Below, piece by piece: positions 27,390 to 35,180 of a DNA stretch of 64,000 nt. Under the pieces are notes generated by a model, which was not told where the DNA came from, did no database searches, and saw only the letters and a program-made list of their open reading frames with translations. Within the stretch, counting starts at the first letter, position 1; each line of letters starts with the position of its first letter. The DNA comes from a virus (lineage: Duplodnaviria; Caudoviricetes), in IMG/VR virus record IMGVR_UViG_3300037070_003657, positions 225 to 64,224 of that record; one strand, written 5' to 3'. The position numbers and the translations under genes were made by a program.

Positions 27390-30164
27390 TTGCCCATCGG
27401 TGGTGAGAACGTCGGCACCGCGTACGTCCGCATCCTGGCGGACGGCGGTGACCTCGACGACTCCATTGCCGACCAGATGGACAACATCGACTGGGACAAG
27501 ATGGGTCGGAAGTCCTCCAAGGAGTGGTCCGAGGGCTTCGAGGACGAGCAGAAGAAGGCCCCCAACCAGACCAAGTTGCGGGACGCCATCGCTGGGACCC
27601 TGGCACGTGGGGACTGGCTCACCCAGACCTTCTTCCGCAGCAAGAACTGGACCAACTTCCGGTCCTCGATGGAGAAGGAGTTCGGTGACGCCGGGAAGTT
27701 GGCGGCGCAGAGCCTGGAGGAGGACCTGTTCAACGGGCTCGACTTCGACGGGCTCGACCGGCGGCTCGACAACCTGACCGCCGACCTGGTCAAGGCCCGC
27801 AAGACCCTGGACGCCCAACTGAGCAAGCAGACCCAGCAGACCCTCGACGAGGCGTACGCCATGAACGTCGAGTTCAACAAGCGAGTGCTCGCCGCCGAGG
27901 TCAAGTTGCGGCAGGACCGGGACAAGCAGTGGGACCTGCACCTGAGCACCGTCCAGGACACCCTCGACGAGGCGTACGCCATGAACGTCGAGTTCAACAA
28001 GCGGGTCGACGAGGACGAGGTCAAGTTGCGTCTGGACCGGGACAAGCAGTGGGACCTGCACCTGAGCACCGTCCAGGACACCCTCGAAGAGGCGTACCGG
28101 ATGAACGTCGACTTCAACAAGCGGGTCACCGAGGAGGAGCGGCAACTGCGTCTGGACCGGGACAAGCAGTTGGACATCCACCTCCAGCGCACCCGTGCGT
28201 ACTACGAGGAGGCGTACGACCTCAACGCCAAGTTTGACAAGGCGTCCCACGAGGCGCTGCGGCGCCAGGCCATCGACCACCAGCACCTGCACCCGATCCT
28301 GCGCCAGACCATCCGAACCAGCGACCGGCTCACCGAGTCCATCGCGCGGGTGTTCGGCAAGGGCTCGCGGTCCGAGTTCCTCAACGTCTTCGGCCGCTCC
28401 GTGGGCGCGCTCTCCTCGCTGCTGGTGCTGCCGCTGAAGGCGTTCTCCGGTCTGCTGTCCATCGGCGGCAAGGTCAGCGACATGTTCGAGGGTGGCTTCA
28501 GCAAGGGGATCGTGAAGTTGACTGCCTCCTTCGGCCTGCTCGCCGTGGGCGCTGCCGGTCTGACCGTTCTGCTCGGTGGAGTGTTCGTCGCCGTGGGGGT
28601 GCTGACCTCAGCCTTGTTGTCCCTGGCCGGTGCCGCCGTCGCCGTCGCCTCCTCCCTCACGTTCGCCCTGGCCGGTGGAGCCGTTGTGGCCCTGGGTGCC
28701 CTGGTCCCGCTGGCTGCTGGGATCGGTGTGGCCACCCTGGCGATCATGAACATGGACGAGGAGACCAAGAAGGCGTTCGACGGCATCGGCAAGTCCTTCA
28801 AGGCTCTGGGCACAGACGCTGCTGGCAACATCTTCAACTCGGCAGCCAAGGACGCGGAGGCCCTGGAGGAGGCGGTCAAGGGACTGTCGGTCATCACCGG
28901 TCCCGTGTCGAAGGCGCTCGGTGGGCTGCTGGACGAGTTCATCGACTCCCTCTCCGACCCGGCCCTGGTCAACTTCCAGGCGTTCCTGGGCCGCACCCTG
29001 CCCGGCATGGTCACCTCCCTGGGTCACATCGTGGGCAACTTCGGTGAGATTTTCATGGGCATCTGGATCGCCATCACCCCCTTCGTGCAGCGCTTCCTCG
29101 ACTGGTTCAGCCAGGTCACCCAGGAGTTCGCCAACTGGGTCAACTCGGCCGAGGGGAAGAACACCATCCGCCAGTTCCTGGAGGACGCCTTCGACTCGGC
29201 GGAGTCCCTGGGTGGGGCGCTGGAGGAGATCATCGGGCTCATCGGTGACCTCTTCGGGGTCAGCCGGGAGACCGGTGACAGCATCTTCGACACCCTGGCC
29301 GGAAAGGTCGAGGAGTGGCGGGCGGCGCTGAACCGGGCCAAGGAGGACGGCGTCATCCAGCAGTGGTTCAGAGACGCCAAGGAGACCACCGATGAGATCG
29401 GCCGGATGGTCGAGGCCATCGGCAAGTTCGCTGACGCTATGGACACCCCGGAGAACCGGGAGACCGTCCGTCAACTGACGGGCCTGTTCGACGACCTGCT
29501 CCTGATCATCGAGACCCTGGCCCCGGTCTTTGTCTCCGCCTTCCACTCGATGGGTATCGCCATCGAGCCCGTTGCCACCGCCATCCGCCAGACCAAGGCA
29601 GCCTTCAAGGACTTCGGTGGGACCGTCCGCACCATCTACAACTCGATGATCGGACCCGCCTTCTCCCAGATTCTGAAGGCCATCGGTGGAGTGCTCGGAA
29701 AGATGGGCGACCTGTTCGGGGCGCTGGCCTCCGTCAAGGGCGCCCCCGACTGGATCGGCAAGACCGCTGACGCCCTTCACGGGGCCGAGGACCAGACCAA
29801 CCAACTGGCCGACGCCATCCGAACCATCCCCGACGCCGACATCAAGGTCACCGGTCCCAGCGACGCCACCATCAACAAGATCGAGGCCCAACTGGCTGGC
29901 CTGTCCCGCCCGCGTACCGCCACGATCACCGTCAACACCCTGCTGACCGGTCACCCCGGCCCTGGTGCTGGCGGTCAGGACGACCGTGGCGTCACCGCCG
30001 TGACCACCCCCACCACCAGCAACCCCGGCGGCAAGCCCACCACTGGACAGGGTGGCAACAGCAGGACGGTCAACGCCAACGGCTGGCAGATCGTCACTCC
30101 CACCAAGGACCCCGAGGCCGTCGCCGCAGAGGTCCTCAACCGCCTCGCAGGCGCAGGATACTGA
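27390..30164 (+). CDS. tape measure protein
   Basis: 924 aa, VGTAYVRILAD N-terminus, helical with hydrophobic centre, follows the chaperones. Confidence 0.9.
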   Translation: MPIGGENVGTAYVRILADGGDLDDSIADQMDNIDWDKMGRKSSKEWSEGFEDEQKKAPNQTKLRDAIAGTLARGDWLTQTFFRSKNWTNFRSSMEKEFGDAGKLAAQSLEEDLFNGLDFDGLDRRLDNLTADLVKARKTLDAQLSKQTQQTLDEAYAMNVEFNKRVLAAEVKLRQDRDKQWDLHLSTVQDTLDEAYAMNVEFNKRVDEDEVKLRLDRDKQWDLHLSTVQDTLEEAYRMNVDFNKRVTEEERQLRLDRDKQLDIHLQRTRAYYEEAYDLNAKFDKASHEALRRQAIDHQHLHPILRQTIRTSDRLTESIARVFGKGSRSEFLNVFGRSVGALSSLLVLPLKAFSGLLSIGGKVSDMFEGGFSKGIVKLTASFGLLAVGAAGLTVLLGGVFVAVGVLTSALLSLAGAAVAVASSLTFALAGGAVVALGALVPLAAGIGVATLAIMNMDEETKKAFDGIGKSFKALGTDAAGNIFNSAAKDAEALEEAVKGLSVITGPVSKALGGLLDEFIDSLSDPALVNFQAFLGRTLPGMVTSLGHIVGNFGEIFMGIWIAITPFVQRFLDWFSQVTQEFANWVNSAEGKNTIRQFLEDAFDSAESLGGALEEIIGLIGDLFGVSRETGDSIFDTLAGKVEEWRAALNRAKEDGVIQQWFRDAKETTDEIGRMVEAIGKFADAMDTPENRETVRQLTGLFDDLLLIIETLAPVFVSAFHSMGIAIEPVATAIRQTKAAFKDFGGTVRTIYNSMIGPAFSQILKAIGGVLGKMGDLFGALASVKGAPDWIGKTADALHGAEDQTNQLADAIRTIPDADIKVTGPSDATINKIEAQLAGLSRPRTATITVNTLLTGHPGPGAGGQDDRGVTAVTTPTTSNPGGKPTTGQGGNSRTVNANGWQIVTPTKDPEAVAAEVLNRLAGAGY
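27840..28241 (+). repeat. 120-bp tandem repeat (about 3.3 copies) in tape measure gene
   Basis: TLDEAYAMNVEFNKRV...RDKQWDLHLSTVQD units at 27840, 27960, 28080 and a partial at ~28200. Confidence 0.95.
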
Positions 30165-30174
30165 GGAGCACGAG

Positions 30175-30213
30175 ATGGCCTGGCCTGGATGGTTCCAGTT
30201 CGACGGCAGCGAG
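30175..30213 (+). other. orphaned original 5' end of minor tail gene (MAWPGWFQFDGSE)
   Basis: SD GAGGAG plus ATG; 13 codons nearly identical in protein to the copy at 30748. Confidence 0.8.
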
Positions 30214-30230
30214 AGTGCTAGTGTCCTGCC

Positions 30231-30731
30231 ATGCGTAACTGTACCCATCCAGGCTGCGACCGCCCCTACCGACGCAGCGGCTACTGCTCATCCCACGCTC
30301 GGCAGTTCCGCCAGTGGGGGAAGACGTTCGATCTCACCAGCACGGGCAGAGCGATGCACCGGTGCCAAGAGCCTGAGTGTGACGAGGTGGCCACGGGGTT
30401 CTGCGAGAAGCACATGCCCGAGTGTGCAGCGGTCGGTTGCAGCGACCCTCGTCGCTCCCACTTGGCCACCTACTGCGAGGTGCACCACAAGCGGAACTAC
30501 TTCCTCCACCGGAACTTCAACATCTCTCTCCCAGAAGTCGAGGAGATGCTGGACCAGCAAGACAACCGGTGCGCGATCTGTCGCCGGAACGGTCCGGCGA
30601 CACTGCACCTCGACCACTGTCACGAGACCGGTCGGATTCGTGGCCTACTCTGTGGCAACTGCAACAGAGGAATCGGGCTCCTTGCCCACGACCCAGAGGT
30701 ACTGCGGCGAGCAGCCGACTACCTCGCGTAG
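30231..30731 (+). mobile_element. endonuclease VII-family (HNH) homing endonuclease gene
   Basis: QDNRCAIC...LHLDHCHETGRIRGLLCGNCNRGIG...LRRAADYL; codon usage differs from neighbours; flanked by the duplicated gene start. Confidence 0.9.
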
Positions 30732-30747
30732 GGGGTGAGTTGGAACT

Positions 30748-32161
30748 ATGGCATGGACAGGCTGGTTCCAGTTTTGACGGCTCAGAGATCATCAACGCCC
30801 AGCGGACCGAGCAGTACGCCGCCAACCTGCGGCTGCCCTGGTTCAAGCCGGTCTACAAGAACGACTCGCTGGGGTACATGCTCGGGGACGACGTTGCCTA
30901 CCGCACCCCGCTGCTCGACAACGCCCCCTGGATGGACAACGACGCCGATGAGAGCGCCGACTTCCTCGGCCTCTACCCGCTCGACGTGGTGGGCATCGAG
31001 GCGTCCTCACGGCAGGCCAGCATCATCGAGTCCACCCGCAACGGCGGTGCCGTACGCGGGGTCCGGCACGGCACCAAGTCCATCGTGTTCAGCGCGGTGC
31101 TCATCGCCCTCTCCGAGGACGGGGTGGAGTACGGCCACCGCTGGTTGAAGCAGGTCCTCAACGGTGCGCCCTGCGTCAGCGGGGACTGCGGTGGGGGCGC
31201 CCTGTGCTACCTGTCGGCCGAGCCCAACATGGAGATTCCCCAGCCCACGGACGGCTACACCATCGGGTACGAGGAGGTCAGCGGGTACGGCGACGGGCTC
31301 TACGGCGACGGCCCCTACGGTGGCAGCAACGTCGTCATGGTTCCGCCGCAGCAGCAGTCCTTCTTCGACCCGACCCCCTGCCTGGACCCGCTGATGCGGT
31401 CCTTCCGGGACGTGACCGTCACCTCCGGCCCCCTCGTGACCAGCAAGATGAAGTTGTCGGACGGCTCCCACGCCTGGGCTGTCACCTTCACCGCCACCGC
31501 CTCCAACCCCTACGAGTTCGGCCGCGAGGTGGCCGTGATCGAGGGCTTTCTAGACCCTGCGGTGGACGTGCCCTGGGCTGAGGGGATCGTGCCCGGCTCC
31601 TACGACGCGCTGGGCACGGTGTACGACGAGGTCCCCTGCTACGACGCCGTGCCCGGCCCGGTCTACGACCCGCTGTGCCCGGCCCTGATCCCGCCACCGG
31701 CTCCGGCCGACGTGCCGCTCGGGTGCTACACCGCCCCGGCGAACTGGCACCGCCGTCAGATCACCATCCCGAAGGAGAACATCCCCCTGTGGGGCGACGT
31801 GCTCCCGATCATCCGCGTCCACGCCAGGGACGCCGAGGTGCGAGCCCTGCGGTTGCGGTTCTACACCGACGTGGACGAGACCGGCGACCCCAACGTGGAC
31901 CCGTGCTCCTTCTGCGGGGACATCGTGCTGTCCTACATCCCCAGGGGCGGCACGCTGGTGTTCGACGCCGCCTCCGAGGCCATCTACGTGGAGACCCCCA
32001 ATGCCAGCCGCCGTGCCGACTCCCTGGTGTTCAGCACCGAGGGCAAGCCCTTCGACTGGCCCGCGCTCACCTGCGGGTTCGGCTACATCGTCACCTTCGA
32101 CACCACCCAGACCCAGGCGCCGCCGATCATCGACCTCTCGCTCATCTCGCGGGTGATCTGA
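30748..32161 (+). CDS. minor tail (distal tail-like) protein; needs a +1 shift at TTT TGA C (30772-30778)
   Basis: ATG GCA TGG ACA GGC TGG TTC CAG TTT T GAC GGC TCA GAG ATC; body EIINAQRT...APW.D....S..F.G follows the tape measure. Confidence 0.75.
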
Positions 32162-32162
32162 C

Positions 32163-35100
32163 TTGCCCAGCGAGACGTTTGACTTCACCGGAGGTTGGCA
32201 GAAGTTCCGCGTTCCCGACGATGTCCAGGAGATCGACATCGACGTGCGCGGAGCAGGCTCCGGCGTCAACCACGGCGGTCGCATGACGGCCACCATGAAC
32301 GTCAACCCCCGCCAGGAACTCTGGCTGATGGTCGGGCGGGAGGGGAAGTCCCGCAACGGGCACCAGGGCGGTGGCGACGCCTGGGGCGGTGGCGCACGAG
32401 GCGGCGACGGACGCGGTGGCGGTACCCAGGGCGGCAACGGTGGCGGTGGCGCGAGCGCCATCCGCAAGGGCTCGCACGACGGCACCATTGCAGCGGTCGC
32501 CGGTGGCGCTGGCGGTAACTCCGGGGACGGCGGCAAGGGTGGCGACGGCGGAGGCAACAACGGCGAGAACGGGTCCAACGGCAACGCGGGCTCTGGCGGC
32601 ACCACGGTCGCCAGGGGCGGCTCGCAGGACGGCGGTGGGGCTGGAGGCCGCTCGTCTCGTGGCGGCTACTGGACGGGCCAGGACGCGCCTGACGTGAAGT
32701 TGGCCCAGGGCGGCGTGGGCGCCTCGGCCAACAGGGACAAGACTGACGGCGGCGGTGGCGGCGGCGGTGGCTACTACTCCGGTGGTGGTGGCCAAGCCTC
32801 AGCCCCCGGCTTCACCCCTGGTGGCGGTGGCGGTGGTGGCTCGAACTACCGGGGCGGCTCGCTGTCCAACGTCGAGTTCATCCGAGGCGGCGGCGGCATC
32901 GGCAACGGCCGGATCATCCTGTCGTGGAAGCCCCCGACCGTCGACATCACCCCGCCTCCTCCGCCGAGCAACCTGAACTTCACCGGTCTGGTCATCGACA
33001 ACGAGACTCCGACCCGCATCTTCGTGAACACCGTCAACCTGCTCATGGAGACCCCGGAGACTAACGACGCCTGGCTCCGTCCCATCGTTCGGTGGGGCAA
33101 GACGTGGGACTTCTCCGACGCCATCACGGTGGTCGGGGAGCGCGCCATCCCCGGCGTCATGACCTGGGCCACGCTGGCAGGGCTCGCGCCCAACACCCTG
33201 TACTACGTCCGAGCCTGGCTCCAGGACCCGGCCGGGCACATCTCGGAGTCCTACAACCAGGCGTCCTTCTGGACCAACCGTCCGCCTGAGCCGCCGGAAC
33301 TGGTGGACCCCAGCGAGAACCGCCAGTTCTCCGAGGTCGAGAACATCACCTTCAACTGGAAGCACGTAGACCCGGACGACCCGGACGCGATGCGCACGTG
33401 GGAGTTCCACTGGCGGCAGATTCCTTTCCCCGGCTCACCGCAGACGGAGTGGCAGCCCTCGATCTTCGGAGAGGGAGCCGACCTGCCCGGCAACAACAAG
33501 TCCATCGTGCTCGACGCGGGGACCTTCCAGGGCAACCGGTTCTACGAGTGGACCGTTCGCACGATGGACGGTGCCGGGGTATGGGGCGACTGGGCTCGGC
33601 CCAACTCGCTGTACGTCATCAGCGAGACGATGCCTCCGCGCCTCACCTTCCCCATCAACGACGAGGCTGCCATCGGTGAGGACCCGCTGTTCATGCGGTG
33701 GGTGTTCGTCGACCCCGAGGCCGGGTCCACCCAGCAGAAGGCGGACCTGCGCTACCGGGCGGTGGGCACCATCGACTGGATCACCCTGTACGGCGAGCCC
33801 GACCCCGGCCAGCCCGGACCCATCCAGGAGTGGGTCATTCCGAACGGCACGTTCCAGCCCGGCTACCGCTACGAGTGGTCGGTCCGGACCTACAACGAGG
33901 ACGGGTTCGACTCGGACTGGGCAGAGCCCAAGACCTTCTGGGCGGTCGAGCGTCCAGGCACCGGGCTGAACGTCGTCATCGGACTGGAGCCCCGGCCCGA
34001 GATGCCCCCACTGGGGTGCGGGGTGAACCGGTTCTTCATCTACGACCGGGGTGGCGAGGTGTTCCGTGGGGAACTTACCCCGATCCAGCAGTTCTCCTAC
34101 GGCCGGAAGCGTGACGACATCTCCTCCTGCACCCTCGCGCTGAACGGCTTCGGCAAGGACTGCGGGGAACTGCTCTCGCAACTGCGCACCTGGATGCACG
34201 AGATCGTGGTGTTCCGTGATGGCAAGCGGGTCTGGGAAGGGCCGATCAGCCGCATCGACCTCGGTGTGGGCGAGGCGGAGATCGAGGCCAAGGACGTGAT
34301 GAACTACGTCTACCGCCGGATCATGCGCCAGGGCTACAACGACACCGCGAAGTACCACCCGGAGACCGACTCCGTCTCAGGTGGGTACTCGGTGGTGAAG
34401 CGCGCCACCTCCATCGTCATGAACTGCCTGGCCTACGACGACCCCAACGTCTTGAAGTGGATGACCGCGCTCGACCACAGCGACGACGCGATCCAGCACC
34501 GGGCCGTCCCCGACTACTCGAAGATGGCGTGGGAGGAGATCGACGACATGGCTGCCCACGCCGGTCTCGACTACACGGTCTCCGGTCGGCGCATCATGTT
34601 CTGGGACACCCACCGCCCCATCGGTCGCCTGCCCGAGATGAGGGACGGGCACTTCTCCGAGCCGCCCCGCATCACGGAGTACGGGATGCAGTTGGCCAAC
34701 CACCTCGGCACCACCAACGGCCAGGGTGTGTACGGCGTCGCGGAGCGAGGCATGAGCCCCGGTGGTGGGGTGCCGCCGTTCTACGGCTGGGTCGAGCAGT
34801 TGATCAGCGCGTACGGCGAGACCGAGGGCACCGCCCCCGAGGCGCTGACCCGTGCCGCCCGTGCCGAACTGGAGCAGGTGCTCGCCCGGCAGAGTGACCG
34901 GAACATCGCCGGGCGCTGGCCCGCACCGGTGATCGTGCGCGTCCCCGACAACGCCTACCTCAACCCGGACATCCAGGTCTCGTTCGACCACCTCATCCCC
35001 GGCGTGTGGATTCCGGTCCGGGCGGTGGGCACCGTGCGCGAGGTGGCCCAGTGGCAGAAGTTGGACTCGGTGACCGTCACCCAGCAGGGTGGCGACGAGG

Positions 35101-35180
35101 AGAAGATCGCGGTCGTCATGAGCCCTGCCCCCAACGACGGGCTCGACCCCGACGCCGACGCTGCCTCCGAGGAGGGCTGA
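32163..35180 (+). CDS. minor tail protein: Gly-rich domain + FN3-like repeats + baseplate hub domain
   Basis: ALK/LTK-like Gly-rich N-terminus; YYVRAW, YEWTVRT, YEWSVRT repeats; W.RKRDDIS..., HEIVVFRDGKRVWEGPI hub motif. Confidence 0.85.
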   Translation: MPSETFDFTGGWQKFRVPDDVQEIDIDVRGAGSGVNHGGRMTATMNVNPRQELWLMVGREGKSRNGHQGGGDAWGGGARGGDGRGGGTQGGNGGGGASAIRKGSHDGTIAAVAGGAGGNSGDGGKGGDGGGNNGENGSNGNAGSGGTTVARGGSQDGGGAGGRSSRGGYWTGQDAPDVKLAQGGVGASANRDKTDGGGGGGGGYYSGGGGQASAPGFTPGGGGGGGSNYRGGSLSNVEFIRGGGGIGNGRIILSWKPPTVDITPPPPPSNLNFTGLVIDNETPTRIFVNTVNLLMETPETNDAWLRPIVRWGKTWDFSDAITVVGERAIPGVMTWATLAGLAPNTLYYVRAWLQDPAGHISESYNQASFWTNRPPEPPELVDPSENRQFSEVENITFNWKHVDPDDPDAMRTWEFHWRQIPFPGSPQTEWQPSIFGEGADLPGNNKSIVLDAGTFQGNRFYEWTVRTMDGAGVWGDWARPNSLYVISETMPPRLTFPINDEAAIGEDPLFMRWVFVDPEAGSTQQKADLRYRAVGTIDWITLYGEPDPGQPGPIQEWVIPNGTFQPGYRYEWSVRTYNEDGFDSDWAEPKTFWAVERPGTGLNVVIGLEPRPEMPPLGCGVNRFFIYDRGGEVFRGELTPIQQFSYGRKRDDISSCTLALNGFGKDCGELLSQLRTWMHEIVVFRDGKRVWEGPISRIDLGVGEAEIEAKDVMNYVYRRIMRQGYNDTAKYHPETDSVSGGYSVVKRATSIVMNCLAYDDPNVLKWMTALDHSDDAIQHRAVPDYSKMAWEEIDDMAAHAGLDYTVSGRRIMFWDTHRPIGRLPEMRDGHFSEPPRITEYGMQLANHLGTTNGQGVYGVAERGMSPGGGVPPFYGWVEQLISAYGETEGTAPEALTRAARAELEQVLARQSDRNIAGRWPAPVIVRVPDNAYLNPDIQVSFDHLIPGVWIPVRAVGTVREVAQWQKLDSVTVTQQGGDEEKIAVVMSPAPNDGLDPDADAASEEG

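Follow-up and report, generated by a model that had tools for sequence, protein, structure and literature searches.

A homing endonuclease gene inside a phage distal tail gene, with a replacement 5ʹ end that carries a candidate +1 frameshift site

An endonuclease gene and a replacement 5ʹ end in a tail gene

The stretch of DNA analysed here ("the window") comprises 64,000 bases of IMG/VR virus record IMGVR_UViG_3300037070_003657 (positions 225 to 64,224). It is all but 224 bases of one 64,224-base contig and has a G+C content of 66.8%. The genome belongs to a siphophage with a high-GC host. Directly 3ʹ of its tape-measure protein gene stands the gene for the distal tail protein (Dit), an order also found in the annotated phages BruhMoment and PIS 136. 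The Dit gene is interrupted after codon 13 by a homing endonuclease gene (HEG) of the endonuclease VII type (Table 1). The insert is best read as a mobile cassette that replaces the 5ʹ end cut off by the insertion: it consists of a promoter-like element, the endonuclease gene, a Shine-Dalgarno sequence, and an ATG with a second copy of the first 13 codons. The stranded native start is called copy A below, and the cassette-borne start copy B. Copy B is one base out of frame with the body of the gene, at a putative +1 shift site.

Table 1. Features of the invaded tail locus, in window positions.
Feature	Position	Strand	Details
Tape-measure protein gene	27390..30164	+	924 codons, stop TGA 30162-30164; PHROG tape-measure families, phrog_305 3.9e-24
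Native Shine-Dalgarno sequence GAGGAG of the tail gene	30163..30168	+	6 nt 5ʹ of ATG 30175; read from sequence
Copy A, native start, first 13 codons MAWPGWFQFDGSE	30175..30213	+	Stranded from the gene; matches family N-terminus
TGCTAGTGT, extended -10-like element	30216..30224	+	6 nt before endonuclease ATG 30231
Endonuclease VII-type (HNH-like) HEG	30231..30731	+	166 codons, stop TAG 30729-30731; PF02945, phrog_2914
Cassette Shine-Dalgarno sequence GGGGGTGA	30731..30738	+	9 nt before ATG 30748; overlaps endonuclease stop by one base
Copy B, cassette-borne start, first 9 codons MAWTGWFQF	30748..30774	+	Ends in rare codon TTT
Putative +1 shift site TTT TGA C	30772..30778	+	TTTT 30772-30775, TGA 30775-30777; identical in contigs of 3 runs
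Dit gene body, +1 frame	30776..32161	+	Codons 10-470, stop 32159-32161; ORF, phrog_838 3.3e-51
Minor tail protein gene, intact	32163..35180	+	1005 codons; phrog_837 minor tail protein 4.6e-43

A preliminary description of this DNA had proposed an endonuclease VII gene inserted in a tail gene, with a duplicated and partly recoded N-terminus that is out of frame by +1. Every element it listed is present at the locus. The two copies have 12 of 13 residues and 32 of 40 bases in common in register, and four of the five codons that differ between them are synonymous, including a change of AGC to TCA. The frame step can be read directly from the sequence, TTT TGA C standing before an open body. This body, FDGSEIIN and 454 further codons, is an intact frame of 462 codons that is +1 relative to copy B. 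If TTTT is read as one step, the result is a 470-residue protein with the family N-terminus.

The stretch around the junction is present in eight soil-metagenome runs, six of which hold at least half of the sampled words. Logan contigs of three runs span the shift site with 0 differences and 0 gaps. A 3,076-base contig (run X1, record 1; depth 602.7) covers all of 29400-31600 (2,201 bases), and two shorter contigs cover 30657-31099 (X4, record 11) and 30591-31140 (X6, record 21). The site is without contig cover in X7. Cover has holes at ~30150-30416 in X4, ~30068-30590 in X6 and ~30160-30810 in X7, all of them low-depth runs in which a hole is no evidence of HEG-less strains. Contigs, as distinct from raw reads, thus give four T residues at 30772-30775 and not three. 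The runs all sample soil, date from a single year and perhaps stem from a single campaign, and X1 may be the source sample; agreement between runs is a measure of assembly reproducibility, not of independent populations. The tetramer TTTT occurs only three times in the 64,000 bases and TTTTGA only once, at the shift site, which argues against a chance run.

The invaded gene and its conserved N-terminus

The preliminary description had spoken of a presumably essential tail protein, and a fold match now gives that protein a name. A model of its closest homolog (P0001, 69% identical to the window protein; 64-sequence alignment, pLDDT 88.3, pTM 0.81) matches SPP1 Dit (gp19.1; 2x8k, E 1.4e-7), and also 80alpha, TP901-1 (4v96), the mycobacteriophage Douge baseplate and the Bxb1 tail tip. 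These structural matches of the model to distal tail proteins identify the invaded gene as one that encodes Dit, the tail hub. The body keeps all columns that are invariant in the family, for which 209 homologs were found.

The start of this protein is highly uniform. Among the best 120 of the 209 homologs, 116 have the motif G-x-E-x-x-N-x-x-R at an offset of 10 (108 homologs) or 9 (8 homologs) from the first residue, and nearly all open with MAWxG. The four that lack it are two fragments (P0002 and P0036), a protein with Ala for Glu (P0109) and one with an aberrant N-terminus (P0116). Annotated phage homologs have the same start, M1 and G5 are at least 90% conserved, and in the P0001 model residues 3-9 (the first strand) and 12-16 form a confident beta hairpin. 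The fixed offset of the motif and the MAWxG starts therefore mark the ATG of copy B as the real start. From the sequence, the conserved Dit N-terminus appears to be suppliable only by one of the two ATG copies.

The aberrant homolog P0116 (JGI, 475 aa) is about 10 residues short, and its N-terminus, MGRLPVDRWQRDLQRHP, reads like an out-of-frame version of the usual GYLSIAGNEICNATR coding sequence; there may be another indel near the start of this Dit gene. Gene callers mis-start or truncate genes of this kind: in the present case the endonuclease and the Dit are both called short (P0122 and P0002).

The endonuclease and its family

By its sequence, the ORF at 30231-30731 is an endonuclease VII/HNH-like nuclease. 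Its match to Pfam Endonuclease_7 (PF02945) spans profile positions 5-80 of 82 and scores 78.8 bits (cut-off 23.6; E 2.8e-22), and the ORF also matches the PHROG family of endonuclease VII, phrog_2914, at 5.3e-30. The catalytic and zinc motif is intact, and the columns H, D, H, H, C, G, N and R that are invariant among 12 relatives are kept. Full-length homologs of the endonuclease are found within terminase genes of mycobacteriophages, which fits a homing role; one such gene is annotated with an intein.

Several features of the locus mark the gene, again as judged from sequence, as a free-standing HEG. Its occurrence at the junction of tape-measure gene and Dit gene is sporadic (5 HEG-bearing and 39 distinct HEG-less loci). 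One HEG-bearing locus, L199, differs by the insert from two HEG-less ones, L203 and L204, to which its Dit is 86% and 82% identical. The DNA that received the insert is itself highly conserved. Across 30 relatives, most positions of codons 1-19, those of the junction GAG ATC ATC AAC included, reach a conservation of at least 90%. Such conservation of the first 19 codons in DNA suits a homing target.

The ATG of the endonuclease, 30231, is without a Shine-Dalgarno sequence, and for this reason we infer a leaderless transcript. The preliminary description had pointed to a leaderless-type layout here, and the arrangement of motif, 6 nt and ATG recurs at the same place in a second locus, L044 (see below). 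In the window, TGNTANNNT-N6-ATG occurs once, against 0.15 expected; 12 of 100 shuffles hold at least one.

A profile search for relatives of the endonuclease, covering 1.84 billion representatives, found further endonuclease VII ORFs (P0242, P0321, P0252, P0302 and P0125) that begin with 5-14 residues resembling the Dit N-terminus, fused in frame; MAYDGYLTFAGTE and MWGGWMMFAGNEI are examples. In these, a stranded native start appears to have been fused in frame to the endonuclease, which may thus use the ribosome-binding site of the tail gene. Dit-like N-termini on endonuclease ORFs suggest that this family sits repeatedly within the first ~16 codons of Dit genes.

The shift site

The putative site has a P-site codon that can re-pair in the +1 frame (UUU U, 30772-30775) and an A-site stop in a weak context (TGA C, 30775-30778). 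Like CUU in prfB, UUU and ACU, the P-site codon of a second lesion described below, are of the NNU type and are decoded by wobble pairing with G34 tRNAs. TTT is rare in this genome, accounting for 8 of 473 Phe codons (1.7%) in 66 high-GC3 ORFs. The stops of these ORFs are TGA (43) and TAG (23), with no TAA. ARAGORN finds zero tRNA genes in the window, which rules out a suppressor or quadruplet-reading tRNA encoded there.

Other tail loci that carry the endonuclease

The locus L044, on a 2,905-base JGI contig, has a Dit ~44% identical to that of the window and a cassette that is, by sequence, homologous to the window cassette. Its tape-measure stop and a Shine-Dalgarno sequence precede a copy A that starts at ATG 835 and encodes MGWAGYFTFGGTEI. 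Then come TGCTACGCT, 6 nt and the ATG of the endonuclease (891), and behind a GGAGGT a copy B that starts at ATG 1461, encodes MGWPGYFTFGGT and runs into an in-frame TAG, followed by ACG GAG ATC ATC AAC. The left junctions of the two loci align base for base (GAGA, 17 nt, ATG), and the two endonucleases are 37% identical over 185 aa.

The body of the L044 gene is intact and in the same frame as its copy B. The lesion, ACT TAG ACG at 1494-1502, is a 6-nt insert that leaves a stop between two Thr codons. Readthrough of this stop would add two residues at a place where all 116 motif-bearing homologs are free of insertions. A hop from ACU to ACG, judging by the sequence, would restore the canonical protein and its spacing. 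ACT TAG ACG is thus a candidate natural "stop-hop", in which 9 nt would encode one Thr. The P-site codon, ACT, makes up 2.2% of Thr codons in L044. TAG also terminates both neighbouring genes and is therefore not reassigned there.

The frame of copy A in the window stays open across the entire endonuclease gene, to which it is +1. It has 187 codons and ends at TGA 30736-30738, 10 nt before ATG 30748. This frame is probably a by-product, its openness being ordinary for the G+C content (0.13 of synonymous shuffles are equally open). We considered its end beside copy B as a coupling device and rejected this, because the counterpart in L044 ends ~100 nt earlier and the openness is unremarkable. 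Ribosomes from the strong native ribosome-binding site would traverse the start codon of the endonuclease.

In three more loci a related endonuclease gene separates the tape-measure gene from Dit: L199 (on the contig of L202), L200 (on that of L121) and L119. At the position of the start codon these have ATC, ATT and ATC, respectively, 5-6 nt 3ʹ of GGGGGTG. The GGGGGTG(A/G) before the tail gene in all three closely resembles the cassette Shine-Dalgarno sequence of the window. Four HEG-less phages with Dit identities of 86%, 82%, 72% and 68% to L199 have ATG, ATG, GTG and GTG at the start. The left junction of L199 keeps the native Shine-Dalgarno sequence, the ATG and one base, and its right junction is an altered duplicate of the segment from Shine-Dalgarno sequence to start.

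All 5 HEG-bearing Dit loci therefore have a non-standard 5ʹ end, and all 39 distinct HEG-less relatives have a standard start (29 ATG, 10 GTG) and an open frame. If loci are taken as independent, simple arithmetic puts the chance of five lesions falling on exactly these five of 44 loci at ~1 in 1.09 million. An insertion point can be placed in three loci, and in each of them the lesion is no more than about 12 nt away from the position homologous to it: 12 nt from that position in the window, 4-9 nt in L044 and at the position itself in L199.

Flanking copies with mostly synonymous differences were met in the window, in L044 and in one further locus. None was found around the first 35 endonuclease loci (best score 6/10), and in a set of 80 loci only L197 has one. 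In this low-GC IMG/VR contig (2374-2890), the 5ʹ end of a lysin-like gene is interrupted by an endonuclease VII gene (TTG 2432-2848). Copy A of L197 starts at GTG 2374 and reads ..KSKFETAMEFTLKWEGV, then a stop. Its copy B starts at ATG 2832 with MKTKFETALEFTLKYEGG.., is intact and heavily synonymously recoded, and overlaps the 3ʹ end of the endonuclease gene. Replacement of the 5ʹ end is thus general, and the lesion is special to the Dit cassettes. As a signal in itself, synonymous recoding of copy B is weak and was set aside. The GC3 values of the first 11 codons are 0.67, 0.70, 0.36, 0.80 and 0.60 in HEG-bearing loci, and in HEG-less loci the mean is 0.84 and the minimum 0.50, so that the ranges overlap.

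Slippage and immunity

How could a Dit protein be made from this gene? We propose that ribosomes would initiate at ATG 30748 and decode nine codons. A fraction of them would slip by +1 while tRNA-Phe occupies the P site on the rare codon UUU and UGA C, a poor terminator, occupies the A site; UUU would re-pair with UUU, and decoding would resume at GAC. The product would be full-length Dit with the canonical N-terminus MAWTGWFQFDGSE and the residues MAWTGWFQFDGSEIIN across the shift site; the remaining ribosomes would release a 9-residue peptide. The preliminary description had raised +1 slippage as one of several routes, and comparison now supports it: the starts of homologs fix the ATG of copy B, UUU_U is a natural prfB site, and four other loci are lesioned.

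Why would such a lesion exist? The junction of copy B and the body is the one place where the target of the endonuclease would be rebuilt. The target stretch is highly conserved in DNA, so that synonymous changes may be insufficient to protect it. Of 21 conserved DNA positions, copy A matches the consensus of 30 relatives at all and copy B at all but 1, and the inserted base is therefore the main difference of copy B. This base would alter the DNA of the junction, slippage would leave the protein unchanged, and the carrier would thereby be immune to its own nuclease. We infer that Dit is made by +1 slippage and that the lesion has this role in immunity, and we put the probability of the two together only a little above one half (roughly 0.55). 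Slippage by itself is the most likely route to the protein, since one of the alternatives discussed below also needs it and would add to this figure.

A broader reading, more tentative, extends the same logic to the other loci. ATG and TGG have no synonyms, and a non-AUG initiation codon is thus the only protein-neutral change that a start codon allows; this would explain the ATC and ATT loci. The endonuclease VII cassettes of actinobacterial phages may then immunise their carriers by DNA changes that are silent only through ribosomal recoding, of three types: a +1 shifty stop (the window), a 6-nt stop-hop at ACU UAG ACG (L044), and initiation at AUC or AUU (L119, L199 and L200). On this reading, recoding signals would be a general currency in the conflict between HEGs and the essential genes they invade, and not a peculiarity of T4 gene 60.

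A number of observations weigh against slippage and immunity. The case for immunity consists of position and analogy only. The stimulator of the GGAGG type, a Shine-Dalgarno sequence 3 nt upstream of the shift codon, is absent, the sequence there being GGCTGGTTCCAG. There is no distinctive RNA structure, as 136-nt folds around the sites in the window and L044 are no better than those of shuffles (z +1.28 and -0.36). A hairpin that encloses the start of copy B and ends at the shift codon in both loci was considered as a stimulator and dropped, because it is equally strong in relatives (-19.6 and -26.8, against a mean of -17.6 and a standard deviation of 3.5 in 32 HEG-less relatives). According to the sections cited of the review by Atkins et al. 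2016 (PMC5009743), some species, a minority, have UUU_U as the natural shift site of their release-factor-2 gene, and the C that follows UGA is important, but UUU_U is much less efficient than CUU_U. The exact site was found in one lineage only, identical in contigs of 3 runs that apparently represent one phage population. The four other HEG-bearing loci each rest on a single metagenome contig that was not read-checked. In L119, L199 and L200 an in-frame GTG 9 nt upstream, inside the Shine-Dalgarno motif, is a possible start. These three loci may also stem from one event, and a fair count is therefore at least three independent events. Finally, copy B is intact in L197, whose architecture is otherwise the same, so that a lesion is not obligatory.

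The lack of a stimulator, of a tRNA gene and of distinctive structure means that the efficiency of slippage is probably low. Each virion requires few copies of the tail hub, Dit rings being hexamers, and a low rate of slippage could therefore suffice.

Alternative explanations

The lesion could have been selected because it lowers the dosage of Dit rather than for immunity, with decoding still by +1 slippage. HEG-less relatives start Dit ~10-20 nt after the tape-measure stop. Insertion would uncouple translation of Dit from that of the tape-measure gene, and the output of the strong cassette Shine-Dalgarno sequence (GGGGGTGA in the window, GGAGGT in L044), perhaps also that of the endonuclease promoter, would then have been handicapped. 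That all five HEG-bearing loci have a translational handicap at the 5ʹ end is consistent with this. We nonetheless think it unlikely: a weaker Shine-Dalgarno sequence or a GTG or TTG start would be a simpler means, the proximity of the lesions to the point homologous to the insertion site is left unexplained, and L197 is without any handicap.

Slightly less credible is the view that the gene is simply broken, without recoding, and the genome a defective selfish allele kept by endonuclease drive or by HEG-less co-infecting phages. Linked deleterious changes can ride on homing elements, and an intact copy A fits a recent insertion. Yet the spanning contig has a depth of ~603 with no alternative junction contig (rare variants can be hidden), and contigs of two further runs have the identical sequence. 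The 462-codon body is intact and keeps all family invariants. Five separate loci, moreover, would all have to be defective, each only within the first 13 codons.

Could Dit be made from another start, without slippage? TTG 30740 is in the frame of the body, upstream of the shift site, and would place MELWHGQAGSS before FDGSE, with the conserved first eight residues dispensable; in L119, L199 and L200 the upstream GTG is likewise in frame. We regard this as improbable. The Shine-Dalgarno sequence ends 1 nt before TTG 30740, too short a distance, and 9 nt before ATG 30748. The residues that would be lost include M1 and G5 and the whole of strand 1 (residues 3-9), and all 116 motif-bearing homologs have the motif at an offset of 10 or 9. 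In L044 the first in-frame start after the TAG is GTG 1569, use of which would cost ~36 residues, six invariant ones among them.

The next alternative is removal of 574 bases, either as an RNA intron or by DNA recombination between the copies, so that copy A supplies the N-terminus. Joining 30213 to 30788 restores the frame exactly, both copies have an identical 11-nt block before the lesion, and group I introns of unclear subtype are known in Cluster J mycobacteriophage tail genes. Even so, removal is very unlikely. A self-splicing intron of group I or II was rejected for want of any Rfam family match and of room for a core: Rfam gives no intron match at E up to 10 in 29900-31100, with just two sub-threshold mir-598 rows at the 3ʹ end of the tape-measure gene, and the endonuclease ORF leaves just 73 of the 574 nt (17 + 56), in which a ribozyme core could not be accommodated. 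Nor would an intron need a Shine-Dalgarno sequence or ATG of its own or a protein-preserving copy of exon 1. As for recombinational loss of the ~574-bp insert, which the preliminary description had also offered, the joint of copy A to body is absent from contigs of 4 runs, although contigs drop rare variants and a rare excised allele could be hidden. Least probable of all is an assembly or sequencing artefact in a metagenome assembly, homopolymers being error-prone on some platforms: TTTT is gap-free in Logan contigs of three runs, one at ~600x (depth 603), which excludes the sequencing error once suggested for the extra T, a run of four bases is short, and the analogous lesions at other loci are not homopolymer changes.

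Relation to known systems

The closest parallel to slippage and immunity at this locus is T4 mobA/gene 60. For MobA, polymorphisms alone did not block nicking, and the bypass insert did (Bonocora et al. 2011, as related in the preprint of Manning & Atkins, bioRxiv 10.1101/2022.08.31.505936). The same preprint describes the bypass insert as placing exogenous DNA in a highly conserved region without an insertion in the protein. As far as the account in that preprint extends, the two systems have in common a free-standing HEG in an essential conserved phage gene and a small DNA insertion near the homolog of the target, which breaks the frame or codon series and which the ribosome must pass. In both, the insertion rather than point differences would protect the carrier, as was shown for MobA and is proposed here. 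A single insert beside the homolog of the target carries both the endonuclease and the recoding lesion. The differences are equally clear. Here there would be a 1-nt +1 shift at a shifty stop (6 nt in L044) instead of a 50-nt bypass, and a take-off stem-loop and a nascent-peptide signal are both missing, with only 9-12 codons ahead of the site. Insertion has not divided the host gene into two protein-coding parts but has duplicated and replaced its 5ʹ end. The nuclease is of the endonuclease VII family and is carried by a high-GC siphophage from soil.

A second parallel is provided by fungal mitochondrial mORFs that bring a replacement gene end, of which Allomyces macrogynus atp6 and Glomus atp6, atp9, cox2 and nad3 are examples given in one source (PMC3630166). 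As described there, these also have an endonuclease gene inside a conserved gene, flanked by native and foreign terminal copies that are largely synonymous, and the gene stays whole without an intron or intein. In contrast to the present case, the mORFs in that description replace 3ʹ ends, are of LAGLIDADG or GIY-YIG types and reside in organelles; here it is the 5ʹ end of a phage gene, with its own ribosome-binding site, and the replacement copy has a frame-breaking lesion.

At the level of decoding, the site resembles the programmed +1 frameshift site of prfB, CUU UGA C (Atkins et al. 2016, PMC5009743). Measured against the sections cited of that review, both have a wobble-read P-site codon that can re-pair one base on, and a UGA in the A site followed by C. 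Unlike prfB, the window site has no Shine-Dalgarno stimulator 3 nt upstream and no autoregulatory logic, lies 9 codons into the gene and is tied to a mobile element. Stop-hops are known, according to the same sections, only from constructs, with no natural occurrence (PMC5009743). The L044 sequence resembles those constructs, in the form described there, in that two Thr codons flank the stop and a hop would give the canonical protein; it differs in that the flanking codons are synonymous rather than identical.

The arrangement thus combines two known kinds, the replacement end of mORFs and the immunity insert of mobA/gene 60. It is a member of neither, because it has no 50-nt bypass apparatus and because it is the 5ʹ end that is replaced. 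Judging by titles and the starts of abstracts, it is not described in the full-text literature on homing endonucleases with Dit or with phage frameshift or self-cleavage; supplementary files may hold further cases.

What would follow if this interpretation were correct? The locus and its relatives would supply short, testable recoding sequences of ~40 nt without elaborate structure, and L044 would be the first natural stop-hop. To our knowledge, few natural +1 shifty-stop sites besides prfB have been described in bacteria and phages. Together with T4 mobA/gene 60, the window would point to a rule: where target DNA allows no synonymous change, escape is by a change that translation repairs. The trick of the replacement gene end would also extend from fungal mitochondrial ORFs to the 5ʹ ends of phage structural genes.

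Other observations

No close DNA relative of the phage was found in the INPHARED phage records, the single weak match there being to an endonuclease VII gene. A single-protein search of IMG/VR gave no close relative of the phage either, and an alignment search with Dit gave no relative in GTDB genomes. A scan of IMG/VR for the left-junction pattern returned 7 stretches, none beside an endonuclease or Dit gene.

Two viral contigs of 57% G+C, L116 (8374-8396) and L117 (8074-8096), have a 23-nt stretch that is identical at 22 positions to the L044 junction and promoter-like motif. It precedes an unrelated ORF, and the likeness may be due to chance or to a shared type of promoter. At the 3ʹ end of the window's tape-measure gene, a palindromic stretch (29961-30020) matches a microRNA family on both strands, with scores (21.6 and 19 bits) below the gathering score of 69; these matches are surely spurious. 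The locus L102 (938-3304) was examined as a possible endonuclease insertion and rejected, since the long gap is a CBM-like insertion: its product is an "evolved" Dit of 788 residues, into which ~330 residues are inserted behind residue ~180.

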